32,057 bases of DNA, from contig CAKKRB010000240.1 in the NCBI GenBank assembly GCA_919902485.1, positions 1-32,057 on the forward strand. The letters are read 5' to 3'. This DNA is from Omnitrophica bacterium GWA2_41_15 (GTDB taxonomy: Bacteria; Omnitrophota; Gorgyraeia; Gorgyraeales; Gorgyraeaceae). Both the position numbers and the translations under genes were made by a program. This document shows, one piece after another, positions 1,865-32,057 of the stretch (the stretch's first letter is position 1; each line of letters starts with the position of its first letter). A model generated the notes under the pieces. That model did no database searches and was not told the DNA's origin. It worked only from the letters and a program-made list of their open reading frames with translations.

Positions 1865-3298
1865 ATGGTGTCTATTGTGAATAATATTTACTTAGATGAT
1901 ACGATTGCAGCGGTTTCAACTCCCATAGGCGAAGGCGGGATAGGGATTGTCAGGCTTAGCGGCAAGGACAGCCTGAAGATAGCGGACAAGGTATTCCAGT
2001 CTAAAGACGGCAAAAAATCTTCCAAATTCAAAACTTATACAGTTCACTATGGACACATTATACAAAAAGAGCACCAGAGCACCAGAGCACCAGAGCACCA
2101 GAAAGTTGTTGATGAAGTGATTTTAACAGTGATGAGGGGCCCGAGAAGTTATACCAAGGAGGATGTGGTTGAAATAAATTGTCATAGCGGGATAGCTCCT
2201 TTAAAAAAAATATTAGACCTTTGCCTTATAAACGGGGCAAGGCTTGCGGAACCAGGTGAATTCACGAGGAGGGCGTTTCTAAATGGAAGAATTGATGTTC
2301 TGCAGGCAGAAGCAGTGCTGGATATTATAAAGGCAAAGACAGAGCTTTCCCTGAGGTCTGCTTTGAATAACCTTGAAGGCCTTTTTTCAAAAAAGATAAA
2401 TGAGATCAGGGAGAGTTTGATTGAAATATATGCTTACATGGAGGCTTGTATAGATTTTTCAGAAGAGGATCTTAAGGGATTAAGGCAGGCTGATCTATTT
2501 AAAAGGTTAGATAAAATAAAAAGTGAAATAGAAAAGTTAATTTCAGGCTCAAATCAGGGCAGGATCTTGCGGCAGGGTATAAAAACAGTCATATGCGGCA
2601 GCCCTAATGTGGGCAAGTCCAGCCTTATGAACGCTATATTAAAGGAGTCCAGGTCTATTGTAACCCATATTCCAGGCACCACAAGGGATACAATAGAAGA
2701 GGTTGTGAATATTAAAGGCATACCTGTCACGCTTATTGATACAGCAGGCATAACAGACACAGACCATCCTGTGGAAAAGGAAGGCATAAGAAGAAGTCAT
2801 ATTTATTTAGGAAACGCAGATCTGGTTTTGCTGGTTTTAGACGGATCCAGAAGGCTTAATAAAGATGACCTGGATATAATAAGGAAAATAAGGGATAATA
2901 AGGAGATAATAGTTGTTATAAACAAAATAGACCTGAAAGTTAAATTGGATATAAAAAGGCTTAAGAAATTTTTTCCTAAAAGCTCTTTTATCCGCGTATC
3001 TGCTTTGAATTTAAAAGGCGTAAATAAGCTGGAGAATGAAATATGGGATACGGTATGGAAGGGCAAGGCTCCTGCTGGGGATTTCATAGGTGTTTCAAAT
3101 GAAAGGCAGCTTGAAATATTAAGAAGATGTATTTTAGATATAAATGAGGCAGTAAAGGCGCATAAAAGCAGCGTATCCATAGATTGCATAAGTGTTTATG
3201 TGCGCTCTAGCATAGAATCTCTGAGTGAGATAACAGGACATACGATAACTGAACAGGCGCTTGATAAGATATTTTCGAAATTTTGCATTGGCAAATAG
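1865..3298 (+). CDS. mnmE: tRNA modification GTPase MnmE (TrmE)
   Basis: G1 GSPNVGKSS, G3 DTAG, G4 NKID, and the C-terminal CIGK tetrapeptide characteristic of MnmE. Confidence 0.93.
   Translation: MVSIVNNIYLDDTIAAVSTPIGEGGIGIVRLSGKDSLKIADKVFQSKDGKKSSKFKTYTVHYGHIIQKEHQSTRAPEHQKVVDEVILTVMRGPRSYTKEDVVEINCHSGIAPLKKILDLCLINGARLAEPGEFTRRAFLNGRIDVLQAEAVLDIIKAKTELSLRSALNNLEGLFSKKINEIRESLIEIYAYMEACIDFSEEDLKGLRQADLFKRLDKIKSEIEKLISGSNQGRILRQGIKTVICGSPNVGKSSLMNAILKESRSIVTHIPGTTRDTIEEVVNIKGIPVTLIDTAGITDTDHPVEKEGIRRSHIYLGNADLVLLVLDGSRRLNKDDLDIIRKIRDNKEIIVVINKIDLKVKLDIKRLKKFFPKSSFIRVSALNLKGVNKLENEIWDTVWKGKAPAGDFIGVSNERQLEILRRCILDINEAVKAHKSSVSIDCISVYVRSSIESLSEITGHTITEQALDKIFSKFCIGK
2068..2102 (+). repeat. 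Octanucleotide tandem repeat (GCACCAGA x4, preceded by a partial unit AGA) inside mnmE
   Basis: Units at 2071-2078, 2079-2086, 2087-2094 and 2095-2102, read directly. Encodes KEHQSTRAPEHQK. Confidence 0.95.
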
Positions 3299-3327
3299 AT
3301 AGACAGGTTTTACAATGTTGTCCTAAT

Positions 3328-3380
3328 CGTTAATTCACAAAACAAGTCATACTCGTTTTGTGAATTAACGGGATTTTTTT
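3328..3380 (+). terminator. Copy 2 of the 43-nt hairpin repeat followed by a T7 run; intrinsic-terminator-like element after mnmE
   Basis: The same 16-bp stem (3328-3343 / 3355-3370), then gga + ttttttt (3374-3380), then an A8 run. Confidence 0.6.
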
Positions 3381-16509: not shown

Positions 16510-17474
16510 AGAAAACAGACTTTAAAGATCTGGCGAAGGATGTGTTTTATTATTCAGGGATAGCAGGTTTATTTCTGCAGGTTGCAAAATTTTACAGGCA
16601 TCCGGCACTGTTAATACTTACCTATCACAGGGTATACGATTCTTTGGCTGATTATGAGTATCTGGGGGTTTCCAGAGATGTCTTTGAGAGCCATATAAAA
16701 TTTATAAAGGATAATTTTAAAGTTGTATCCATGCAGGAGGGAATAGGCGCTCTTTGCGAAATAAAATCAAAAGAGATCTATGCGGCAATTAACTTAGATG
16801 ACGGATATATGGATAATTATATCAATGCATTTCCTGTGTTAAAAAAATACAACATACCTGCCACAATTTTTCTTACAACTGATTTTATAGGTAAAAGCCA
16901 TATTTTCTGGTGGGACAGGGTTTTTAATATAATGTCTTTTGTCGGATCTAGCCGGCTGGAGAGCGGCATAGAAACTGACCGCATAGACAAGATTCTTGTA
17001 AATAAAAACGAAGATGAGATAGAAGGTTTTATCAGAGATATGGAGAAAAGATACGGATATAAAGAAAATCATGTACCATGTCCTATGCTTGGGTGGGCTG
17101 AGATAAAAGAGATGAGCAATTCTGGCATAAGTTTTGAGGCCCATACAAAAACCCATAAGAATCTATGCCTGCTGAAAGATAGGAAAGTCCTGGAAGAGCT
17201 TACAGGTTCAAAAAATGCGATAGAAGCTGGCTTGGGAAAAGAGGTGTTCGGTTTCAGTTATCCGTTTGGCATATTCGACCAGAGGATAAAGGGCCTGGTA
17301 AAGCAAGCTGGTTTTAAATATGCAAGGACTAGTTTCAAGGCATTTAATTATAAAGAAATAGACCCATTTTTATTATCCTGTATAGGAGCAGGGGCTGTAT
17401 CAAAGCCTAGTTTTCTTGCAGCAAGGCTTTCTTCAAGCTTGTTTAATACTGGCGGGAGGCAGCATGGATATTAA
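16500..17474 (+). CDS. Polysaccharide deacetylase (NodB/CE4-like)
   Basis: LTYHRV, NLDDGYMDNY and ATIFLTTDFIG motifs. Confidence 0.75.
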   Translation: MGLKKTDFKDLAKDVFYYSGIAGLFLQVAKFYRHPALLILTYHRVYDSLADYEYLGVSRDVFESHIKFIKDNFKVVSMQEGIGALCEIKSKEIYAAINLDDGYMDNYINAFPVLKKYNIPATIFLTTDFIGKSHIFWWDRVFNIMSFVGSSRLESGIETDRIDKILVNKNEDEIEGFIRDMEKRYGYKENHVPCPMLGWAEIKEMSNSGISFEAHTKTHKNLCLLKDRKVLEELTGSKNAIEAGLGKEVFGFSYPFGIFDQRIKGLVKQAGFKYARTSFKAFNYKEIDPFLLSCIGAGAVSKPSFLAARLSSSLFNTGGRQHGY

Positions 17475-18885
17475 AAATATAGGTATATACAGACAGGAAA
17501 GGCCGTCTTATTCAGAGAAAAAGCCGTATTTTCCTCCAGCTATTTTTGAAGAATACCCTTTTAATGACCGAAGTACAGATCAAAACAACTACGCATACAG
17601 CTCTATTAGAAATCTTCTTAAATTGCTAGAGCTTGATTCAGAAAATTTTGGGAAAAAATCCTGGAATCCTTTTGGATCTTTTATGAAACCAGGAGATACA
17701 GTATTGTTAAAGCCTAATCTTGTAAGGCATTTTTGCGAAAATGGAGATACAAAAGGACTTATGACCCATGGTTCTTTAATCAGGGCGGCGGCTGATTATG
17801 CTTATATAGCTTTGCAGGGAAAGGGCAGGATAATAATTGCTGATGGCCCTATGGATGACGCAGATTTTGAAAAAATAGCATCTATGTCAGGCATCTACGA
17901 AATCAGGGAATTCTACAAAGGCGAGACAGGTTTTGATATAGAGATATATGATTTGAGGCAGGAGATGGTTGTAAAAAAGCATGAAAAGATAGAGGAGAGA
18001 GTAAAGCTTGCAGGCGATCCTCTTGGATATAGCGCGGTAAATCTGGGGCCCATGAGCGCCTTTAAAAAAGGAGACCTGGATTATGCCTCTTTCAGAGGCT
18101 CTGAATGCAGGCCTGATATCATGTCCCTTCACCACAATAAAGAAAAGGACGAGTATTTAATCTCAAATACTTTTTTAAATGCAGACGTGGTTATAAATAT
18201 ACCTAAGATGAAGACTCACAAGAGGGCAGGCGTAACTCTTTCTCTTAAGAACCTGGTAGGTATTACAGGGGACAGGAATTGGCTGCCGCATTATAGTGAG
18301 AATGTGAGTTGTTCTAAAGTTCCACCCCGTAGGTGGCCAATTGGCCACCTACGGGGTGGAATTGAGGTTGTAAAGAATGCGATTGGGTTTATAAAACCTT
18401 TAAGAGACAGTTTAAGGCAGTTTACAGGTGTTACTGTATCTACAATGCGTTCAGGAAACTGGCATGGGAATGATATTATATGGCGCACTATCCTGGATCT
18501 CTGGAGAATAGCGTTATATGCAGATAAAAATGGAATAATGAGAAATGAAGAACAGAGAAAAACATTTGTAATAGTGGATGGCATTATTGGAGGAGAAGCA
18601 GACGGGCCTACAAACCCGACTGCTAAAAGATGCGGAGTCCTGGTAGCAGGATTCCACTGGCCTTCTGTGGATATTGCAGTAAGCCGCATCATGGGATTTG
18701 ATCCGATAAAGATCCCAAAATTTAAAGGATTTTCACATCTCGCGGACATACCCTGCGTGTCAAATATAAGAGAATGGGATAATAAAATTTCAGGATTTAA
18801 GGGCATGTGCCTGAATTTCAAACCGCATTATGGATGGAAAAAACATATAGAGGCTGACACAGATGTTAAAAAGCAAGATTTATAA
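17464..18885 (+). CDS. DUF362-domain protein (the ATG at 17464, with GGAGG 4 nt upstream, is preferred over the TTG at 17416)
   Basis: VLLKPNLV and INIPKMKTHKRAGVTLSLKNLVG motifs typical of DUF362. Contains an in-frame palindrome. Confidence 0.7.
   Translation: MDIKNIGIYRQERPSYSEKKPYFPPAIFEEYPFNDRSTDQNNYAYSSIRNLLKLLELDSENFGKKSWNPFGSFMKPGDTVLLKPNLVRHFCENGDTKGLMTHGSLIRAAADYAYIALQGKGRIIIADGPMDDADFEKIASMSGIYEIREFYKGETGFDIEIYDLRQEMVVKKHEKIEERVKLAGDPLGYSAVNLGPMSAFKKGDLDYASFRGSECRPDIMSLHHNKEKDEYLISNTFLNADVVINIPKMKTHKRAGVTLSLKNLVGITGDRNWLPHYSENVSCSKVPPRRWPIGHLRGGIEVVKNAIGFIKPLRDSLRQFTGVTVSTMRSGNWHGNDIIWRTILDLWRIALYADKNGIMRNEEQRKTFVIVDGIIGGEADGPTNPTAKRCGVLVAGFHWPSVDIAVSRIMGFDPIKIPKFKGFSHLADIPCVSNIREWDNKISGFKGMCLNFKPHYGWKKHIEADTDVKKQDL
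18320..18361. repeat. Perfect 42-nt palindrome inside the DUF362 CDS
   Basis: ttccaccccgtaggtggccaa|ttggccacctacggggtggaa, checked base by base. Both strands translate to PPRRWPIGHLRGG. Confidence 0.95.
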
Positions 18886-20249: not shown

Positions 20250-21335
20250 ATGACAAAAGTTGTTCTTGTGATTTCAAAGATGGATATCGGAGGCGCAGAA
20301 AAGGTCTTTTATGATCTTGCCGAAAGATTAAGCCTGGATACCGGATACAGGGTTACTGTAGTATGTCTCTATGCGCAAGGCAGGCTTGGAGACAGTCTTG
20401 CGGCAAAAGGGGTGGAGATACATGAAAATATCTTAAAAGATAAATTTGACGCAGCAGGAATTTTCAGGTTAGCTGATATGCTCAGAGACAAAGCTCCAGA
20501 CATTCTTTATATCGCAGGCCAGGCTGTAACTCAAGCTGTTTGTCTGATAGCCGGTATATTTGTAAAGATACCTTTAAAAGTCATAGGTTTTCATTCTCAT
20601 AATCTGGTCCGGAGATCCTGGATAAAATCATTGACAGACAAGCTAAGCATATCCTCTGCAGGTTATATAACGTGTGTATCGGAATCCCAGAAGAAACATC
20701 TTGTTTCCGATAAGAGAGCGCAGTCTGAAAAAATAAAGGTTATCTACAATGGGGTAGATACCAAAATTTTTAAGCCATGCGCAAAAAAGGCTGATAATTC
20801 TATTGTTATAGGCGCAGTAGGTTCAATGAGAATGGAAAAAGGTTTTGATATTTTGATAAAGGCTATTCCCTGGGTTTTGAATAAATGCCCAAATGCTTTT
20901 TTTATGATGATAGGGGAAGGCAAAGAAAAAAATAACCTTGAGAAACTGGCATCTAATCTAAAGGTGGATTCAAGTGTCAGATTTCTTGGCCAGAGAGAGG
21001 ATATCTCTGAGATCATACCAGCGTTTGATATTGCCTGCTCAAGTTCCAGGATAGAAAATTTCCCTCTTTCTATACTTGAATACATGGCGTGCGCTAAACC
21101 GGTAGTGGCTACAAAAATAGGGGGAGTGCCTGAGATGGTTAAGGATGGATTTAACGGAGTTGCGGTTGATGCAGAATCTCCTGAAGCTTTAGCAAAAGCC
21201 ATAGTATGTCTGATAAATGATAAAGAATTGAGAAAAACCATGGGCATTAACGCCAGAAAGACTGTAGAGGAAAATTTTACAGTTGAAAAGATGGTGCAAA
21301 ACTATAAGGATTTTTTTAGAGATATACAAAAATGA
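20250..21335 (+). CDS. GT4-family glycosyltransferase
   Basis: ENFPLSILEYMACAKPVVATKIGGVPEMVKDGFNG (E-x7-E region). Confidence 0.85.
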   Translation: MTKVVLVISKMDIGGAEKVFYDLAERLSLDTGYRVTVVCLYAQGRLGDSLAAKGVEIHENILKDKFDAAGIFRLADMLRDKAPDILYIAGQAVTQAVCLIAGIFVKIPLKVIGFHSHNLVRRSWIKSLTDKLSISSAGYITCVSESQKKHLVSDKRAQSEKIKVIYNGVDTKIFKPCAKKADNSIVIGAVGSMRMEKGFDILIKAIPWVLNKCPNAFFMMIGEGKEKNNLEKLASNLKVDSSVRFLGQREDISEIIPAFDIACSSSRIENFPLSILEYMACAKPVVATKIGGVPEMVKDGFNGVAVDAESPEALAKAIVCLINDKELRKTMGINARKTVEENFTVEKMVQNYKDFFRDIQK

Positions 21336-24300
21336 GAATTTTGATTACTACAACCTTAAATAAAAATATGACAGAGGCAAAGATAAAGCCGCTCTTGATG
21401 CTGCCTGAAGTGGAACAGGTATTCTATGTGTCTGACATGCCAGGCCCGTATTTTGAAAAAGTCAGATATTATTGCATGCCTGGCTGGATATTGAGATCCT
21501 GCAGGAATAATTCATTGGTAAGATGGACATATAAATTTTTTACAGCCGGATATCTGGCTTTATCCAAAAGACCAGATATGATTATGGGTTATGCATTGAT
21601 ACCTCACGGTATAAATGCGGTTTTAATAGGTAAATTGCTGAATATCCCTGTATGCGTAAATTTTATGGGCGGGAGTTTTTTAATAGAGAGCATAAATCCA
21701 TTATTGAGAAAGCTGGTTTTAAGAATAGCTGATATGGCAGACATAATCACTGTCACAGGCTCGCGCACCAGGGATTTACTTGTATCAAAAGGTATCAAAG
21801 CAGGCAAGATAAAAATAATATCCAGCACTATAGATACAAAAAGGTTTTTCCCGCAGCATCTGGATAAGCAATACGACATTATCGCAGTGGCTCAGTTGAA
21901 TCACGGCAAAAGAATAAGCATGTTTCTTGATATCATTTCCAGGCTTAAAAAATCCGGCATCAATTTGAAAGCTGTGATAGCAGGGGACGGCTGTTTAAAA
22001 AAAGACCTTGAGGAGTTATCAGAAAAAATAGGACTTCTGGAAAATGTATATTTTGCCGGATTCCAGCCTGATATTGAAAAATTTCTTAATGAGTCGAGGG
22101 TATTTTTGCTGCCTACGGCTCATGAAGGCTTGTCGCTTGCAATGCTTGAGGCAATGGCATGCGGGGTTGTGCCTGTTGTTTCAAACGTGGACAACCTTTC
22201 TGATGCGGTAAAAGACAGGTTTAGCGGAAGATTGATAGACAGGGATGATACAGAAGGGTTTGTTTCAGCTGTTTCTGAGTTATTAAAGGATAAAAGTATA
22301 TATGAAACTTATGCGAAAAATTCAGTTAATACTATAAATGAACTTTATACAATTAATAATGCGGCTCAAAAATGGACAGAGATTTTAAAACCCTCACCCC
22401 AACCCTCTCCCATAAATGGGAGAGGGAGATTGTATCATTGGTATTTTAAAAGGTTAATGGCTATGAGCGCCGAGGAGGTTATTTACAAGGCAATAGGGAT
22501 TTTAAGAAAGAAGATTTTATATTTTAAAGCAATCTCATTGGATAAGAAAATATTTTCATCTTCAATCAACAATAGAAAACCTGTATTTTTCATAGATAAA
22601 CAAGATCTGGATTTTATAAGAGAGAATATTAAAAGATCTGATTCTGTTACGCATCCCCTCACCCCTGCCCTCTCCCATAAATGGGAGAGGGGGGTTACTC
22701 TTTTAGATGACATAAAACGCAGGGCAGGCTTTTCTGATTTTGAAATCAGGGCAATATGGGAACCTAACAGGTTTCAGTGGTTTGTGAGTTATGCCCAGAT
22801 ATATGCCCTGGATAGAGATGAAAAAATAGCAAAAGATATAGTTGGTGTATTAAATGATTGGATATCAAGAAACCCATTTATGAAGACCTTGAACTGGATG
22901 GACAGTCTGGAGGTTTCTTTGCGGCTTTTATCCTGGTCATGGATATATTTTTTGATAAAAGATTCAAAATCTATGGATGTTGATTTTGAAAGAGTATTTT
23001 TGAAAAGCATATATCTGCATGCGGAGTTTATAAAAAACAACCTGTCTGGTTATTCATCTGCTAATAATCATCTGATAGGGGAAGCAGCAGGCCTGTTTGC
23101 GGCGGGTATCCTGTTTCCAGTATTCAAGGCGTCTTCTGCATGGACAAAGAAAGGCAAGTTTATACTTGAGAGGGAGATGATAAGACAGGTATATCCTGAC
23201 GGCGTGGATAAAGAGCAATCGAGCCATTATCATGAGTTTGTAATGGACTTGTATCTGATAGCGGTTATTCTGGCAAGAAAGAACAGCATTGTATTTTCAG
23301 AAGAAATGCTTTTAAGGCTGAACCGCATGGGTGAATTTTTGATAAGCATAATGGGCCAAAAAGGTAAAACCCTGTCCATAGGAGACAGCGATGACGGGGT
23401 TGCTTTAAAATTCGGGGTATCAGAAGAAGCGCAGAACGCCGTTTCTCTTATAAATACAGCCTGCATCCTGTTTAACAGGCCTGATTTTAAAATATGCGGA
23501 GATTATCTGGATGAAAAAAGCCTATGGTTAATGGGTTATGAAGGTTATGCCAAGTATTCTGCAATGGAAAAAGCTGATTCTAAGCAGGGATCAAAATGTT
23601 TTTCAGAAAGCGGTTATTATATCATGAGAAACAGGGAATTATGCATTAGCTTTGATTGCGGGGGTTTGGGTTATTTATCTCTTGCCAGCCATGGCCATGC
23701 AGACAGCCTGAGCATAAACCTGAACGTCTGGGAAATGCCTGTTTTTATAGATCCGGGCACGTACCTGTATCATTCATGCGGCAAGTGGAGGGATTATTTC
23801 CGCGGCACTTCAGCTCATAATACAATTAAGATTGACAAGCTGGATCAATCAGAGATAGAAGGGCCTTTCTTATGGGGTTATAAAGCCAGGTCTTTTCTCA
23901 AATACTGGTCCCAGAATTGCAGGATTGACAGGGTGTGCGGTTATCACACAGGCTATACGAGATTAAGCGACCCGGTTTCGCATGCCAGAGGTATTACATT
24001 CGATAAATATAATAATGAAATAGTGATAACAGACAGCATTTTTTCTAAAAAAAGACATCTTGTGGAGCAATTCTTTCATCTGCATCCGGATTGTTCTGTG
24101 GAACAATTAGATAGTCATTCATTCGAGATTATCAATGCAGCAGGGAACAGGCATGCCTGTTCCCTGCATATGGAAATAGACAAGGGCCTTGATTCGCATA
24201 TTTTAAAAGGCTCTGAGTCGCCTATTGCAGGGTGGTATTCTGATAAGTTTGGAGAAAAACAAAAAACAATCACAATTTGCAATAGCTCTTATTCAAAAGG

Positions 24301-24406
24301 CCAAAGAAATTTTATTACAAAGATAAAAATCTCTAACAATGTTATTGCGAGGAGCGGAGCGACGAAGCAATCTGAAAAGGAGATTGCTTCGCTTCGCTCG
24401 CAATGA
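21332..24406 (+). CDS. Fusion protein: N-terminal GT4 glycosyltransferase (about aa 1-350) and C-terminal heparinase II/III-like polysaccharide lyase (about aa 370-1005)
   Basis: GT part: HEGLSLAMLEAMACGVVPVVSNV. Lyase part: NNHLIGEAAGL and SHGHADSLSINL motifs. The junction and the 3' end are formed by palindromic elements. Confidence 0.8.
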   Translation: MRILITTTLNKNMTEAKIKPLLMLPEVEQVFYVSDMPGPYFEKVRYYCMPGWILRSCRNNSLVRWTYKFFTAGYLALSKRPDMIMGYALIPHGINAVLIGKLLNIPVCVNFMGGSFLIESINPLLRKLVLRIADMADIITVTGSRTRDLLVSKGIKAGKIKIISSTIDTKRFFPQHLDKQYDIIAVAQLNHGKRISMFLDIISRLKKSGINLKAVIAGDGCLKKDLEELSEKIGLLENVYFAGFQPDIEKFLNESRVFLLPTAHEGLSLAMLEAMACGVVPVVSNVDNLSDAVKDRFSGRLIDRDDTEGFVSAVSELLKDKSIYETYAKNSVNTINELYTINNAAQKWTEILKPSPQPSPINGRGRLYHWYFKRLMAMSAEEVIYKAIGILRKKILYFKAISLDKKIFSSSINNRKPVFFIDKQDLDFIRENIKRSDSVTHPLTPALSHKWERGVTLLDDIKRRAGFSDFEIRAIWEPNRFQWFVSYAQIYALDRDEKIAKDIVGVLNDWISRNPFMKTLNWMDSLEVSLRLLSWSWIYFLIKDSKSMDVDFERVFLKSIYLHAEFIKNNLSGYSSANNHLIGEAAGLFAAGILFPVFKASSAWTKKGKFILEREMIRQVYPDGVDKEQSSHYHEFVMDLYLIAVILARKNSIVFSEEMLLRLNRMGEFLISIMGQKGKTLSIGDSDDGVALKFGVSEEAQNAVSLINTACILFNRPDFKICGDYLDEKSLWLMGYEGYAKYSAMEKADSKQGSKCFSESGYYIMRNRELCISFDCGGLGYLSLASHGHADSLSINLNVWEMPVFIDPGTYLYHSCGKWRDYFRGTSAHNTIKIDKLDQSEIEGPFLWGYKARSFLKYWSQNCRIDRVCGYHTGYTRLSDPVSHARGITFDKYNNEIVITDSIFSKKRHLVEQFFHLHPDCSVEQLDSHSFEIINAAGNRHACSLHMEIDKGLDSHILKGSESPIAGWYSDKFGEKQKTITICNSSYSKGQRNFITKIKISNNVIARSGATKQSEKEIASLRSQ
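22391..22428 (+). repeat. GC-rich hairpin element, copy 1 (ccctcacccc aa ccctctccca-taaa-tgggagaggg), at the GT/lyase junction
   Basis: 10-bp stem 22403-22412 / 22417-22426. Encodes PSPQPSPINGRGR. Confidence 0.9.
22655..22693 (+). repeat. GC-rich hairpin element, copy 2, inside the lyase N-terminal region
   Basis: cccctcacccctg ccctctccca-taaa-tgggagaggg gg. The stem is identical to copy 1. Encodes PLTPALSHKWERG. Confidence 0.9.
24344..24404. repeat. Imperfect 61-nt GC-rich hairpin element spanning the 3' end and stop codon of the GT-lyase gene
   Basis: Outer 8 bp attgcgag/ctcgcaat, inner 10 bp gaagcaatct/agattgcttc, asymmetric internal loop, apical loop gaaaagg. Translates to ...ARSGATKQS... 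and LRFARNDK in two frames. Confidence 0.85.
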
Positions 24407-24425: not shown

Positions 24426-25685
24426 ATGAGAATAGCTATATTCGGGCTTGGTTATGTTGGGACAGTTACAGGAGCCTGTTTTGCCATGCAGGGCCATAAG
24501 GTAGTAGGGGTTGATATAAATAGTGAAAAGGTTAAAGCTATTAATCAGGGAAAGAGCCCTATTATTGAAAGAGAATTGGATGATGTGATTGCTTCTGGCG
24601 TTAAGGCTGGTAATTTTTCAGGAGCCAGCTCTACAAAAGAGGCTATTGCAAAAACAGATATGGCAATGATATGCGTAGGGACTCCATCCATGGAGTCAGG
24701 AGCTATCAATGTAGGGCATCTTAAGTCAGTGGCAGAGGACATAGGCAAGGCCTTGAAGAACATGGGCAGATTTTATACTATTGTAATACGCAGCACAGTT
24801 CTACCAGGAACCACAGAAGATGTTTTAATCCCAGCGATAGAACAGGCTTCAGGCAAGAAACTGGATAAGGGCTTTGCTGTATGCGTGAATCCGGAATTTA
24901 TGAGAGAGGGGAATTCCCTGGAGGATTTCTATAAGCCCGCTAAGACTATTATAGGCGCGGCCAGCGAGAGAGAAGCTGATCTTTTAAAGCGATTGTATAG
25001 TTTTACGCAAGCCCCGATCATTGTTAGCGACATAAAAACAGCGGAATTTTCTAAATACCTGGATAATGTTTTCCACGGCCTAAAGATATCCTTTGCAAAC
25101 GAGATAGGCAATATTGCAAAAAAATCAGGATTGGATCCTGTAAAAGCCATGGAGATTTTCTGCAAAGACACAGTTTCAAACATATCTCCAAGATACCTGA
25201 AGCCTGGATTTGCGTTTGGCGGTTCCTGCCTGCCAAAAGATATTAAGGCGCTGCTTTATAAAGCAAAGACGCAGGATCTGGATATACCTCTCATCAATTC
25301 CATATTGAGAAGCAATGACATGCAGGTAGATATTGTTGCCAGAGACATACTCAGAACAGGAAAGAAGAAAATAGGCATGCTGGGCCTGAGCTTCAAGCCA
25401 GGCACGGATGATCTCAGGGAGAGCCAGCTTGTAAGGCTCGCTGAGATTTTAATAGGCAAAGGTTTAAAATTAAAAATATACGATAAGAATATAGCTATGG
25501 CAAAACTGGTAGGCGCAAATAGGAAATATATAAATAAAGAGATCCCTCATATCTCATCGCTTTTATGTAAGCGCATAAATGAGGCAATAAGAGATTCAGA
25601 GCTGATTATATTAGGCCATGATACAAAAGAATTCAAAGAAGCAGTGAAAAAGCTCAAAAAACCCCAAATTTTAATGAAGTTATGA
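24426..25685 (+). CDS. Nucleotide-sugar 6-dehydrogenase, most like GDP-mannose 6-dehydrogenase (AlgD-type). The ATG at 24426 is preferred over the start at 24339.
   Basis: MRIAIFGLGYVG Rossmann start, KPGFAFGGSCLPKD catalytic-Cys motif, LGLSFKPGTDDLRES. Extended similarity to my recollection of P. aeruginosa AlgD. The family call is secure; the substrate call is tentative. Confidence 0.85.
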   Translation: MRIAIFGLGYVGTVTGACFAMQGHKVVGVDINSEKVKAINQGKSPIIERELDDVIASGVKAGNFSGASSTKEAIAKTDMAMICVGTPSMESGAINVGHLKSVAEDIGKALKNMGRFYTIVIRSTVLPGTTEDVLIPAIEQASGKKLDKGFAVCVNPEFMREGNSLEDFYKPAKTIIGAASEREADLLKRLYSFTQAPIIVSDIKTAEFSKYLDNVFHGLKISFANEIGNIAKKSGLDPVKAMEIFCKDTVSNISPRYLKPGFAFGGSCLPKDIKALLYKAKTQDLDIPLINSILRSNDMQVDIVARDILRTGKKKIGMLGLSFKPGTDDLRESQLVRLAEILIGKGLKLKIYDKNIAMAKLVGANRKYINKEIPHISSLLCKRINEAIRDSELIILGHDTKEFKEAVKKLKKPQILMKL

Positions 25686-26890
25686 AGAAAAAAAATAAAG
25701 TTTTAATATTAGTAGAGAATTTATCAGTGCCGTTTGACAGGCGCGTATGGTTAGAGGCCAGGGCCTTTAAAGAGAAAGGTTTCGGGGTAAGTGTTATTTG
25801 CCCGCGCTTCAAAGCTGAAAGGGCTTTTGAAATACTGGAAGGCGTAAATATATACAGGTATAGCGCCCCGCTTTCTACCAGAGGCTTATTAAGCTATATA
25901 ATGGAATTTTCATATTGTTTCATAATGACTTTTTTATTAAGCATGCGGGCGCTTTTAACGCATGGTTTTGATTATGTGCATGCGTGCAATCCGCCAGACA
26001 CATTTTTTATTATAGGTATGTTTTACAGGGTTTTCGGAAAAAGATTCGTATTCGACCAGCATGACCTATGTCCAGAGGTATATCTTGCAAAATACGGAGA
26101 GCATAAAAAAGATTTTTTTTACACAGCGCTTTTATTACTGGAATACCTGACCTATAAAACAGCATACAGGGTTATCGTAACGAATAAATCATATGAAGCA
26201 ATTGCGATATCCAGAGGCAGGCTGGATCCAGGGAAGGTTTTCGTTGTAAGAACCGGCCCTGATCTAAACAGGTTAAGGCAGGCAGTTTCTGTTCCTGAGC
26301 TAAAAGCAGGAAAAAGATTTCTTGTCTCATATCTGGGAGTCATGGCTTTGCAGGACGGCGTAGATTATTTTATACGAGCCATAGACATTATTGTGAATAA
26401 GCATAAGCGCAGCGATATCTTATTCAGTTTAATAGGAAGCGGAGATACTATAGAGGATTTGAAAAAGATGAAAGATGACCTGGGTCTTGGCAGATCAGTG
26501 GTATTTACAGACAGGGTTTCGGACGATAAACTTGTAAATTATCTTTCAGGTTCGGATGTCTGCATAGCGCCTGATCCTAAAAATGCCCTGAATGATAAAT
26601 CAACCATGAACAAGATCCTGGAATATATGGCAATGGCAAAACCCATAGTTTCTTTTGACTTAAAAGAGGCCAGGTATTCTGCGGGAGATGCGGCGTTGTA
26701 CGCAGAACCTAATAACGTACAGGATTTTGCAGATAAAATACTGGAGCTCCTGGCTGATCCGGAAAAGAGAAGAATAATGGGCGGCATCGGTTACGAAAGG
26801 TTAAAAGGCGAATTATCCTGGGAATATAACAAAAAGAGGCTGATAGATGTTTATACAGTTAAAGAATGTCATACTTTCAATGTTAGGTAA
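25682..26890 (+). CDS. GT4-family glycosyltransferase (WbuB-like)
   Basis: N-terminus KVLILVENLSVPFDRRVW and C-terminal ...KILEYMAMAKPIVSFDL... typical of this GT4 subgroup. Confidence 0.8.
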   Translation: MKKKNKVLILVENLSVPFDRRVWLEARAFKEKGFGVSVICPRFKAERAFEILEGVNIYRYSAPLSTRGLLSYIMEFSYCFIMTFLLSMRALLTHGFDYVHACNPPDTFFIIGMFYRVFGKRFVFDQHDLCPEVYLAKYGEHKKDFFYTALLLLEYLTYKTAYRVIVTNKSYEAIAISRGRLDPGKVFVVRTGPDLNRLRQAVSVPELKAGKRFLVSYLGVMALQDGVDYFIRAIDIIVNKHKRSDILFSLIGSGDTIEDLKKMKDDLGLGRSVVFTDRVSDDKLVNYLSGSDVCIAPDPKNALNDKSTMNKILEYMAMAKPIVSFDLKEARYSAGDAALYAEPNNVQDFADKILELLADPEKRRIMGGIGYERLKGELSWEYNKKRLIDVYTVKECHTFNVR

Positions 26891-26904
26891 CACTAATTAT
26901 TCTC

Positions 26905-27286
26905 GCCAGCCCTGGCAGGTTTTGAGAAAGGCCTCGCCGATTCAAGCGGGCACGGTGCCCTGCCTCCAGCCTGGGGCCGTTCGGCACAGAGATGCTTTCG
27001 GCGTGCGCTACGGTTTACAGCTAGTTTTTTATACTGAAGGTAGTCTTGACAGTATAAAAAACTTCGCCGTAATCCCTTGCGCACTTATATTCAAAAGAAT
27101 CAATTATGCCGAAACCTCTCAAATGTGCCTCAGACCCCAGCCTGCACAGGGCGAGCGACCCTTCGACAAGTGGTTCGACAGGGCTCACCACCTTGAACCA
27201 TCCTGAGCGAAGTCGAAGGGGCTCAGGGTTCTTAGAGTCCCGAGCGAAGCCGAGGGACGTCTTTTCGAAAACCTGCCAGGGCTGGC
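26905..27286 (+). repeat. Copy B (complete) of the ~380-nt GC-rich structured element with perfect 19-bp terminal inverted repeats; MITE-like element or structured ncRNA gene
   Basis: gccagccctggcaggtttt (26905-26923) is the exact reverse complement of aaaacctgccagggctggc (27268-27286). The interior aligns to copy A. No plausible coding capacity. Confidence 0.9.
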
Positions 27287-27288
27287 TA

Positions 27289-29352
27289 ATGCGATATGTG
27301 TTCGTCTTTATGCTTTTATGTTCATTTGCACTTTTACCTGTCAGCCTATTTGCTGAAAAAGAGGAAAAGGGATGGTCCCCTTTTTATATCCCATGGAACT
27401 ATTGCCCAGGTTCTAAAGTGGATATGAGTTTTATGCTTGATGCGCCTGCTGGAAAGCACGGCTTTGTAACTGTAAAAGACGGCCATTTTTATTTTAAAGA
27501 CGGCAAGAGGGTAAAGTTCTGGGGTTTAAACCTGCATTCGAATACCGCGTGTTTTCCTAGCCGCAGCCAGGCCCAGGATGTTGCGAAGAGACTGGCGCAG
27601 CTTGGCTGCAATATTGTCAGAATGCATCTTTTGGATAATGAAGACCCGGGCGGAATTATTGACGCGTATTATAAGGACTCGCAGCATCTTTCAACTAATC
27701 AGATGGATAAATTAGATTATTTTATAGCTGAATTAAAAAAGAACGGCATATATGTATGTTTTGATGTGCTCGGGCTTGGCGCAAGAAAATTCAAATCAGG
27801 CGATAATTTACCCCAGGCTGATGTCCTCAGGCGCGGCGCAGACGGCATCTCATTTTTTGATGAACGGATAAAAGAACTAAGCAAGAAATTTGCGCTGGAT
27901 TTTTTATCCCATGTTAATCCCTATACCGGTAACTCTTATCTGAATGAACCATGCGTTGCTTTTGTAGAAATGACCAATGAAAACACGCTGTTTCTGGGAA
28001 AATCCCACAAAGACTTTCCTTCTTATTATGAAGAGGAAATTCAGGGGATATGGAAGAAATGGCATAGTGATAAAAATATAAAAAGCAGTTATAGGGATTG
28101 GTATGAGGACAGGCAGTTCTTATACGAATTACAGGATGGCTATCAAAGAGATATGCATAAGTATCTTCGCTCGATAGGCGTAAAGGTTCCAATAGGGGCT
28201 TCTAATCTGCCTTATGATAACCTTGGCCTTCTTGCTGACAGCCATATGGATTTCACAGATATTCATGTCTATTGGGATCTTTCCGACGAGCTTGTAAAGA
28301 TACATAACAGGCCGCTTATAAAACAGGATCATGCTAACCCTCGTACCATGGTGAATACCATGTCTATTGCAAAGGTAAAGAACAAGCCTCTTATTATTAC
28401 AGAATGGGGGAGTGTGTGGCCGAATGACTGGAGGGCTGTAGATGTTATTAAAATAGCATCATACGCGGCCTTAAACAACTGGGATGGGTTGTTTATGTAT
28501 TCTTATAACGGCGGCTGGGGAATGTCGTGGGATGGCCTTGAAAACAGGCTTTATTATGGGACAGTGGTGTTCAATGATCCCGCAAAAATGGGGTTATTTC
28601 CTGCAGCAGGGCTTATATTTTTAAGAGGGGATATCAAAGAAGCTAAAAATACTTATAAAATTTCTTATGATATAGGAAAACTTTTTAAAACATACGATAT
28701 GTATGAAGACAGGACCAGGCTGGCAGGCATTCCTTATGTATCAAAACTGGAGAAGGATTTTAATGAGGCAGGGAATTCAATGTCCAAAGATCAGGCTTAT
28801 CCTTATATAAAGGAGTTACGGCCGCAGGGCATTGTTAAGTCTGATACAGGCGAAATTTTAAGGGATTTTAAAAAAGGGATTTTTATGCTGAACGCGAGAA
28901 ATGCATTTTCTTTCTCTGGTTTTATAGGTGGCCAGGATACAATTCCTGCATCAGATAATGTTAGTTTTTTCACAGAAAAAGACTTTGCGGCCTTTACCAT
29001 AGTTTCCTTAGATGGCAAAAATATTATAGATTCAAAAGATCTTTTGCTTACAGTTGCAGGACGGGTAAGGAATAGAGATCAGAGTTTTGCGCCGCATATA
29101 ACAAAAAAAATAAATGATCTGAATAAAGATGTGTATATTTTAAATAAAGGGTCTGAACCCATAACAGTGGAACCCATAGAAGGCGTGGTTACGATAAAGA
29201 AGTCTGATGACAGAGAACGCATAAGGGTTTTTTGTCTAAATGAAAATGGCCTTATAAAATCAGAGATTCAGGCGGACAGCCGTAAAGATTATTATTCTTT
29301 CAGGGTATCAGGGGCCAATAGGACCATATATTATAAAATAGTAAAGGAGTGA
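27289..29352 (+). CDS. Secreted clan GH-A (GH5-like, TIM-barrel) glycoside hydrolase. The ATG at 27289 is preferred; the ORF-track start at 27106 lies inside the repeat.
   Basis: Signal peptide MRYVFVFMLLCSFALLPVSLFA. CNIVRMH, MTNENT (acid/base NE) and IITEWG (nucleophile E) motifs. Confidence 0.6.
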   Translation: MRYVFVFMLLCSFALLPVSLFAEKEEKGWSPFYIPWNYCPGSKVDMSFMLDAPAGKHGFVTVKDGHFYFKDGKRVKFWGLNLHSNTACFPSRSQAQDVAKRLAQLGCNIVRMHLLDNEDPGGIIDAYYKDSQHLSTNQMDKLDYFIAELKKNGIYVCFDVLGLGARKFKSGDNLPQADVLRRGADGISFFDERIKELSKKFALDFLSHVNPYTGNSYLNEPCVAFVEMTNENTLFLGKSHKDFPSYYEEEIQGIWKKWHSDKNIKSSYRDWYEDRQFLYELQDGYQRDMHKYLRSIGVKVPIGASNLPYDNLGLLADSHMDFTDIHVYWDLSDELVKIHNRPLIKQDHANPRTMVNTMSIAKVKNKPLIITEWGSVWPNDWRAVDVIKIASYAALNNWDGLFMYSYNGGWGMSWDGLENRLYYGTVVFNDPAKMGLFPAAGLIFLRGDIKEAKNTYKISYDIGKLFKTYDMYEDRTRLAGIPYVSKLEKDFNEAGNSMSKDQAYPYIKELRPQGIVKSDTGEILRDFKKGIFMLNARNAFSFSGFIGGQDTIPASDNVSFFTEKDFAAFTIVSLDGKNIIDSKDLLLTVAGRVRNRDQSFAPHITKKINDLNKDVYILNKGSEPITVEPIEGVVTIKKSDDRERIRVFCLNENGLIKSEIQADSRKDYYSFRVSGANRTIYYKIVKE

Positions 29353-30808: not shown

Positions 30809-30826
30809 AAATAAAGGCAATGGCTG

Positions 30827-30857
30827 TGCAGGGGAGGGTTTTAAACCCTCCCCTGCA
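30827..30857. repeat. GC-rich palindromic hairpin (tgcaggggaggg-ttttaaa-ccctcccctgca) after the priming transferase gene; terminator-like or a member of the small-palindrome family
   Basis: 12-bp perfect stem 30827-30838 / 30846-30857. Shares the GGTTTTAAACC core with 690-718. No T-run follows. Confidence 0.8.
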
Positions 30858-31440: not shown

Positions 31441-32033
31441 AGCACAAAAGAAGGCGTTATTTTATAAACAAGGCTTTTCAGGCAGAATTTATATTAAAAT
31501 TTTGCGGACTCGTAATACTGGGCTCAGCCCTATTTGGGATATTATTGTATCTGTTCTCCAAAAATGCGCTGACAACTTCCTTTGAAAATTCCAGGCTTGT
31601 GATTAAAAGCACAGCTGACTATATTTTCCCAGGGCTTATATCCGGCGGCCTGCTAGTGGCTGTAATCACAGCGCTTTCAGCCACCATAGTAGTTGTCCTG
31701 ATGACGCACAGGATAGCCGGACCCATGTACAGATTTGAGAAGTACATAAGGGAAGTTGGCTCAGGAAAGCTTTATTCAGATTTAAAGATACGGAAGAAGG
31801 ATCAGTTTCAGAACATGGTTGAGGCATTGAACAAAATGACAGACGACCTTAAATTAGGCCTCGTGGAGGTTAATGATGTATCCGGGAAGCTGGATAAGTT
31901 AATAGGAGAGCTTTCTGACAGTTCAAGCAGGGAGATCCTTTTAAGGGAAGACATAAAAAGAATAGTCAGCGAGCTGAAAAAAGACAAGCAGAACCTGACA
32001 AGGGCCCTGGAGTATTTTAAAATTAAATATTGA
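31437..32033 (+). CDS. Small membrane protein with two TM segments and a HAMP-like linker followed by a coiled coil
   Basis: TM1 around aa 20-40, TM2 around aa 68-88, then HRIAGPMYRFEKYIREVGSGKL...FQNMVEALNKMTDDL (HAMP-like). Confidence 0.6.
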   Translation: MKHKRRRYFINKAFQAEFILKFCGLVILGSALFGILLYLFSKNALTTSFENSRLVIKSTADYIFPGLISGGLLVAVITALSATIVVVLMTHRIAGPMYRFEKYIREVGSGKLYSDLKIRKKDQFQNMVEALNKMTDDLKLGLVEVNDVSGKLDKLIGELSDSSSREILLREDIKRIVSELKKDKQNLTRALEYFKIKY

Positions 32034-32046
32034 TACTCATTTGTTT

Positions 32047-32057
32047 AGCCAGCCCTG
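32047..32057 (+). repeat. Probable start of a third copy (C) of the large element, cut by the window edge
   Basis: gccagccctg matches the first 10 nt of the left terminal repeat at 26905-26914. Only 10-11 nt are visible. Confidence 0.4.

Follow-up and report, generated by a model that had tools for sequence, protein, structure and literature searches.

A probable composite MITE family of nested hairpin modules in a Candidatus Omnitrophota lineage

The window analysed here is a 32,057-nucleotide (nt) stretch of DNA from Omnitrophica bacterium GWA2_41_15, and the feature at its positions 26905–27286 is probably the body of a decayed copy of a new composite, non-autonomous MITE family that is specific to a Candidatus Omnitrophota lineage. 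The family is undescribed in earlier work and is found in several uncultured Omnitrophota, a group known almost only from metagenomes; literature searches on Omnitrophota repeats, ncRNA and GAGCGAAG strings returned nothing relevant. It thereby becomes the first described repeat family for an Omnitrophota lineage, it explains why assemblies of these genomes fragment at specific places, and it points to IS1202/ISTde1-type transposition in Omnitrophota.

An earlier note, made from the sequence alone, had described this 382-nt stretch as a multi-copy, GC-rich and hairpin-rich element bounded by perfect 19-bp inverted repeats and devoid of coding capacity, and the observed properties bear this out. 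The inverted repeat is exact, with GCCAGCCCTGGCAGGTTTT occurring once per strand (26905–26923, +, and 27268–27286, −) where shuffles expect 0.04 occurrences, and its arms pair beyond 19 nt, a repeat finder reaching 31 nt at 84% complementarity. The GC fraction is 0.552 in the element and 0.582 in the second copy, against 0.387 in the remaining window. Both strands fold comparably and far better than their shuffles (z = −9.6 for the + strand and −10.7 for the − strand), and a read-through transcript of the element from either strand would be predicted to form a very stable rod. The sole ORF across the element (26847–27206, 119 aa) matches other element copies only, and a search of its translation against 5.8 billion proteins returned only 17 clusters, all unnamed and mostly on very short contigs, which indicates a narrow family that disrupts assembly. 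Indels among the copies are not multiples of three, as expected of non-coding DNA. In public assemblies, the spurious 119-aa ‘gene’ is annotated on the element.

Our alignments show that the element is layered like an onion, with outer terminal inverted repeats (TIRs) enclosing a shell, the shell enclosing a core, and GAGCGAAG mini-hairpins in addition. The outer layer is a 27-nt TGT...ACA inverted repeat with the termini TGTRATACTTTCAATG...CTATTCAAATAGTACA, whose left arm (TGTAATACTTTCAATGTTAGGTAACAC) and right arm (GTGTTACCTAnCTATTCAAATAGTACA) occur as a pair in more than ten copies and in which GGTAAC, at TIR positions 20–25, is conserved among copies. The shell is a branched structure of roughly 190 nt, closed by the 19-bp helix P1 and further composed of helices P2 (GAAAAG/CTTTTC) and P3 (CGCCGATTC/GAATCGGCG), the junctions GAGCGGGCAYGGTG, CGAGCGA and CGGAGCGAAG, and arm B, a hairpin whose loop WCGCTGG is conserved. 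Shell arm A bears the core, a long hairpin of roughly 190 nt, at its tip. Further 3′ modules, built on GAGCGAAG(Y)CGARGG, are found in some copies, and in some a mini-hairpin, CCCGCCCTTT..AAAGGGCGGG, flanked by 5-nt repeats. This mini-hairpin (26–31 nt, with variable loops; L159 6091–6121, L160 2088–2113 and 2152–2177, L156 4964–4989 and 5028–5053) lies inside element copies between 5-nt direct repeats, CGTGC once and CGAAG several times, and looks like an extremely small insertion with target duplication.

This anatomy changes the reading of the 19-bp repeats, for which MITE-type TIRs and the closing helix of a large structured RNA had both been proposed. The TIRs that bear target-site duplications (TSDs) are the other, 27-bp TGT...ACA pair, which lies about 38 bp further out; positions 26905 and 27286 are not the element ends, as the outer repeat is present at 26867–26893 and its truncated right counterpart runs from 27287 to about 27306. 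The proposal of mobile DNA was therefore right as to mobility, given the 27-bp TIRs and the 15-bp TSDs of intact copies, and wrong as to the ends. The proposal of a closing helix was right as to the helix, the outer half of which swaps between copies with complementarity kept, and wrong as to one large dedicated RNA gene, since the helix closes the shell module only.

In the copy at hand (hereafter copy B), the left outer TIR of the composite MITE, TGTCATACTTTCAATGTTAGGTAACAC, occupies 26867–26893 (+), with one mismatch to the consensus left arm, and aligns with the left ends of TSD-bearing intact copies; the upstream glycosyltransferase ORF (25682–26890) ends within it, stop codon and final codons included. 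On the same strand follow the P1 5′ strand (26905–26923), the exact reverse complement of 27268–27286 in a helix that co-varies, and the shell 5′ half (26924–26957), with one strand each of P2 (GAGAAAGGCC) and P3 (TCGCCGATTC) and the conserved junction AAGCGGGCACGGTG; both helices form pairs that co-vary, and alignment A3 shows no change in the junction GAGCGGGC. The core (26958–27151, +) is a long imperfect hairpin with a closing stem from CCCTGCCTCCAGCCTGGGGCC to GACCCCAGCCTGCACAGGG, the invariant blocks TTCGGCAC, CGCTACGGTTTAC, CCTTGCGCAC and AATGTGCC, a tip hairpin at 27023–27063 and a variable linker at 27085–27107. The variable 3′ module block (27152–27258, +) contains the junction CGAGCGA, an inverted CTTCGAC...GCTCA module (27159–27201), the 18-mer CCTGAGCGAAGTCGAAGG (27202–27219) and the GTCCCGAGCGAAGCCGAGGGAC mini-hairpin (27237–27258); the P3 3′ strand and arm B, present in most other copies, are missing from copy B. 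The shell 3′ end (27259–27286, +) consists of the P2 3′ strand GTCTTTTCGAAAACC and the P1 3′ strand (27268–27286). The right outer TIR remnant, TAATGCGATATGTGTT... (27287–27306, +), is truncated, as placed by alignment A4 and the gene call in the source contig, and holds the ATG (27289) of the downstream 687-aa gene. Its terminal ...CTATTCAAATAGTACA is missing, so copy B is one-ended, with no TSD visible. Because the outer parts overlap the stop codon of the ORF at 25682–26890 and the start codon at 27289, the element is not strictly intergenic, contrary to what had been supposed.

Two further copies lie at the window edges, as the earlier note had recognised. Copy A (1–378, +) is cut by the window edge at about core position 6. 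Its positions 109–305 are 98% identical to 27063–27259 of copy B, fully so from about 134 on, and its tip hairpin (55–108) is wholly different from that of copy B (27023–27063). Copy A retains the P3 3′ strand and arm B (305–345), has a different P1 3′ strand (GTAGGCCTGCCTTAGCCCTGC, 358–378) and has no right outer TIR before folC (ATG at 390). The third copy starts at 32032 (32032–32057, +) with GATACTCATTTGTTTA, a shortened form of the left outer repeat, and then the first 10 nt of P1 (32048–32057, gccagccctg), where the contig breaks; its homologue is fully assembled in locus L159, after the orthologous gene. The window copies are probably decayed members of the composite MITE: copy B kept its left end and lost its right, and copy A and the third copy lie at contig breaks.

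About 40 related copies were found, in four Candidatus Omnitrophota MAGs and in groundwater and lake metagenomes. An exact 22-mer from the element has 19 occurrences in the four MAGs, which come from unrelated projects, and a gapped pattern gave 25 further matches in JGI and ENA metagenome contigs; each MAG holds at least 3–7 copies, the MAGs being incomplete. Elements of the family are about 400–520 bp long, TIR-bounded copies measure 281–518 bp, and none contains a transposase gene. The sole part common to all copies, at roughly 90% identity by BLAST and alignment, is element positions 62–254, that is, the core (about 26958–27151 in the window); the outer parts, including the 19-bp repeat, occur in some copies only. 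All 22 scored copies sit between genes, and their orientation to these genes is mixed, so that the shared orientation of copies and genes seen in the window does not extend across the family. Searches of plasmid and phage collections with blastn gave no match, and the outer-TIR pattern had 0 matches in viral contigs; a core 16-mer had 15 matches in viral contigs, but BLAST showed the seed alone to be in common.

Since the window contig and its sister contigs all stop within the element, the repeat might be thought chimeric or collapsed. In the Hainich groundwater metagenome, the source of the window, independent ENA assemblies of the same population break at it as well, which speaks for a real, multi-copy repeat. 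Two independent assemblies span copy B together with its unique flanks, L159 spans the homologue of the third copy, and dozens of copies have different flanks in MAGs and metagenomes of unrelated projects; an assembly or binning artefact is thus extremely improbable.

The evidence for transposition comes from the intact copies. The 15 bases abutting the TGT/ACA ends match at 14 of 15 positions in L126, L129, L145 and L147, with a duplicated sequence that is specific to each locus, and L125 has a 15–16-bp duplication in which 15 of 16 positions match; the duplicated targets are AT-rich and unrelated among loci. Beside a tRNA-Ala(CGC), the flanks of L125 are contiguous in the syntenic locus L120, which lacks about 440 bp and one of the duplicates. 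The 27-bp TIRs, the 15-bp TSDs and this orthologous empty site together indicate that the whole unit was inserted as double-stranded DNA at cuts staggered by 15 bp. A recognisable TSD is missing from about half of the copies bounded by TIRs, and the window copies have none, which counts against the MITE reading; a survey of the IS1202 family ascribes TSD loss to recombination between copies, or to drift (bioRxiv 10.1101/2022.12.17.520857). The five TSDs (for example L126 4852–4866/5319–5333 and L129 3539–3553/4011–4025) each have exactly one mismatch between left and right copy, and all of these are transitions, four G/A and one T/C, a regularity that may reflect the age of the insertions.

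We propose that a trans-acting DDE transposase would move the element, the best fit being the ISTde1 subgroup of the IS1202 family. In the survey (Siguier, Rousseau and Chandler; bioRxiv 10.1101/2022.12.17.520857), the inverted repeats of this subgroup begin with 5′-TGT and have a second conserved block near position 20, published as a logo, the direct repeats are 15–17 bp, and the elements, which occur in many environmental phyla, are 1.3–1.7 kb long and encode a 400–500-aa DDE transposase with a subgroup indel. The TGT ends and the 15-bp TSD of the Omnitrophota element agree with this signature, whereas the subgroup’s elements encode a transposase and the Omnitrophota element does not, so that the link is one of signature; Omnitrophota are also absent from the phyla listed in the survey’s passage on the subgroup. 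About 300 kb of retrieved loci contained no autonomous element or transposase with these TIRs, and no ORF family recurs there at non-syntenic positions; the assignment to IS1202/ISTde1 therefore goes only by the signatures of ends and duplications. In the search for an autonomous partner, a solo TIR-like site turned up in L141, where it is flanked by ordinary genes.

Inside the outer repeats, the layers are separable units, because they occur alone or flipped. Three loci have shells only (L151, L136 and L153) and five have cores only (L120, L121, L130, L132 and L133); L145 has its entire interior inverted relative to the outer repeats, and in L138 and L129 it is the core that is flipped within the shell. 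Among the copies, many have been truncated or have gained further hairpins by insertion. Inspection by eye revealed no TSDs at solo cores, which counts against the MITE reading as an account of the inner layers. In L137 (5249–5645), L138 (4449–4866), L151 (3213–3605) and L140, the gap upstream of one conserved gene holds type-1 and type-2 cores and shells in combinations and orientations that differ by genome, pointing to a hot spot of insertion or to the later rearrangement of an old insertion.

Like the prokaryotic MITEs Correia/NEMIS, ERIC and QMITE2 of Coxiella, the Omnitrophota element is small, non-coding, multi-copy and located between genes, with TIRs, TSDs and very stable predicted stem-loops on either strand, although MITEs are typically AT-rich (PMC10969869). 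The interior of the Omnitrophota element has 55% GC in a genome of 39% GC, which also speaks against the MITE reading; in addition, its 15-bp TSD is unusually long, and its interior differs in being a nest of hairpin modules in three separable layers, whose stems co-vary and whose loops are conserved.

Palindromic units that form intergenic mosaics, occur in both orientations and vary in composition by locus also recall the bacterial interspersed mosaic elements (BIMEs), which consist of REP units. An origin of the REP/BIME-like or IS200/IS605-type (PATE) kind, in which a Y1 HUH transposase (RAYT or TnpA) moves the hairpins as single-stranded DNA and a BIME-like cluster results, would account for the alternating orientations, for the solo cores without TSD and for stems conserved in structure but not in sequence, as for structure-specific recognition. 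Yet the composite has true TIRs and 15-bp TSDs, and Y1 transposition produces neither. The units are about 190 nt, where REP units have 20–40 nt, and they are nested rather than placed side by side, in a mosaic that has TIRs and TSDs at its borders. By eye, the hairpins show no conserved 5′ tetranucleotide such as GTAG beside them, no Y1 transposase or TnpB gene was noticed beside a copy, and no repeated ORF family turned up in the loci; such an origin is quite unlikely.

A stronger challenge to a plain MITE comes from the conservation of the interior, since a DDE transposon does not require its stems to co-vary or its loops and junctions to be invariant. Both shell and core stems co-vary strongly in the aligned copies. 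In a core-excised alignment of 13 shells, assessed against slid controls and 500 shuffles, 98.5% of the cells in the four helices are paired (34–52% in the slid controls) and 30 of the 42 pairs have changed on both sides, with none of the 500 shuffles as good. In P1, 14 of the 19 pairs have changed on both sides, and its outer half is wholly different between copies and still complementary. The most conserved columns of the shell are mostly unpaired (GAGCGGGC, GAGCGA, CGGAGC and the arm-B loop WCGCTGG), and the GAGCG motifs are all on one strand. In the core, compensatory changes are found in 20 of the 49 predicted pairs; they separate two core subfamilies that are about 70% identical to each other and coexist in one genome. 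Core identity across the four Omnitrophota MAGs and the metagenome contigs is 88–98%, and type-1 cores share 90–96% identity between MAGs that reach only 50–66% in their syntenic orthologous proteins; the sequence must then either have spread horizontally in recent times or be under selection.

Selection on a folded single strand would account both for the covariation of the stems and for the conservation of loops and junctions, and it is conceivable, though clearly less probable than the MITE reading, that the shell, the core or both are the gene for a new structured ncRNA or a functional single-stranded DNA hairpin, with the transposon only the vehicle. The paired and doubly changed shell helices, the unpaired conserved columns with their one-stranded GAGCG motifs, the compensatory split between core subfamilies within one genome and the near-identity of cores between distant hosts all favour this reading, as does an excess of G–U over A–C among the mismatch cells of the shell (13 to 4), but that excess stems from only about 5 versus 4 events and is a weak bias. 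In the core, by contrast, the mismatch cells are strand-symmetric (29 G–U versus 33 A–C), which fits neutrally decaying DNA copies. Orientation to genes is mixed, the core occurs both ways in the shell and the shell both ways in the TIRs, and the many truncated or interrupted copies likewise speak against a dedicated RNA gene. The element matches no Rfam family: Rfam 15 gave 0 matches in the window at the gathering threshold and only chance-level matches at E ≤ 10 in the element and in shell-only copies. A scan for sigma-70 promoters and intrinsic terminators found nothing in or beside the element, and the longest guide-like match between linker and flank is 7.8 nt on average, hardly different from the 7.5 nt obtained with shuffled linkers.

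Several specific candidates were also considered. A TTGACA-N18-TAATCC string in the core, noticed by eye, fails the criteria of the promoter scan. A guide-RNA element of the IS110 bridge RNA or TnpB/IscB omega RNA kind was rejected, as there is no linker match and no recombinase or nuclease gene adjoins any copy. Hand checks had raised a cobalamin riboswitch B12 box, group II intron domain V and 6S RNA, but their Rfam models gave no match.

Returning to the composite MITE as the preferred reading, we suppose that insertion into hairpin tips and recombination between inverted arms probably brought its layers together, and that most copies would decay neutrally, with hairpin structure having mattered for the propagation of the master copies of the inner modules. 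A bolder version, which we hold only tentatively, is that shell and core represent new classes of structured single-stranded RNA or DNA modules that are selected for their fold and ride a DDE transposon, or that they reflect a hairpin-based mobility mechanism. If so, these modules would nest in hairpin tips, flip, and spread almost unchanged between distant Omnitrophota, as a cargo or by a mechanism that is undescribed. The RNA-like conservation and near-identity across hosts at 50–66% protein identity make the family a reasonable candidate for transcriptome work.

Small palindromic modules also occur in frame in genes of the window. Compared with the solved Thermotoga maritima enzyme (1o5z), the FolC protein encoded next to copy A (folC, 390–1856) has two in-frame insertions. 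The first (687–716; about 18 aa, NHPNCVGNGFKPFPTAF) and the second (1041–1087; about 14 aa, RLRSGREGWRVKGGG) each coincide with a GC-rich palindromic module, and the second is the reverse complement of the element’s GTCCCGAGCGAAG(Y)CGAGGG mini-hairpin. Small palindromic modules that sit in frame in housekeeping genes, and that nest, are a feature shared with Rickettsia palindromic elements (RPEs) and with the very small mobile repeats of cyanobacteria reportedly described by Elhai et al. in 2008. The folC insertions resemble those of RPEs, which insert in frame into genes (PMC10969869), although the likeness covers the mini-modules (30–55 nt, GC-rich) and not the whole 382-nt feature. For annotation, the family carries a threefold warning: it is called as a spurious 119-aa ‘gene’, its ends supply the stop and start codons of real genes, and related mini-hairpins lie in frame in folC.

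Other palindromes in the window behave similarly. A perfect 42-nt palindrome (18320–18361) reads through in frame within the ORF at 17416–18885, and CCCTCACCCC..CCCTCTCCCATAAATGGGAGAGGG occurs twice (22391–22431 and 22656–22696), also in frame, in the 1024-aa ORF at 21332–24406; one example of such a read-through is PSPQPSPINGRGRL. Because they read through in frame, all three are probably in-frame hairpin insertions. A hairpin family of the form TGTG[TC]AGGG..GGTTTTAAACC..CCCT is present between genes at 30825–30854 and in frame in folC at 687–716, with compensatory stem changes between the two (GGGAACGG/CCGTTCCC versus GGGGAGGG/CCCTCCCC).

The 18-mer of the 3′ module block, CCTGAGCGAAGTCGAAGG, contains a GCGAAG(Y) stretch like that of the GCGAAGC mini-hairpin, which is very stable. 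It occurs in 101 unrelated IMG/VR contigs (loci L019–L119), compared with 15 for the element 16-mer, and in 94 of 99 cases the flanking bases lengthen its CCT/AGG stem by one pair or more, whereas a shifted control gives 32 of 99; the string was not found in the literature. Finally, a 50-nt hairpin, CGTTAATTCACAAAACAAGT...ACTCGTTTTGTGAATTAACG, is present at 1813–1862 and 3325–3374 in copies that are 98% identical. The first overlaps the last codons and stop codon of folC and the second lies just after mnmE (1865–3298), and the pair may be a shared terminator-like repeat.
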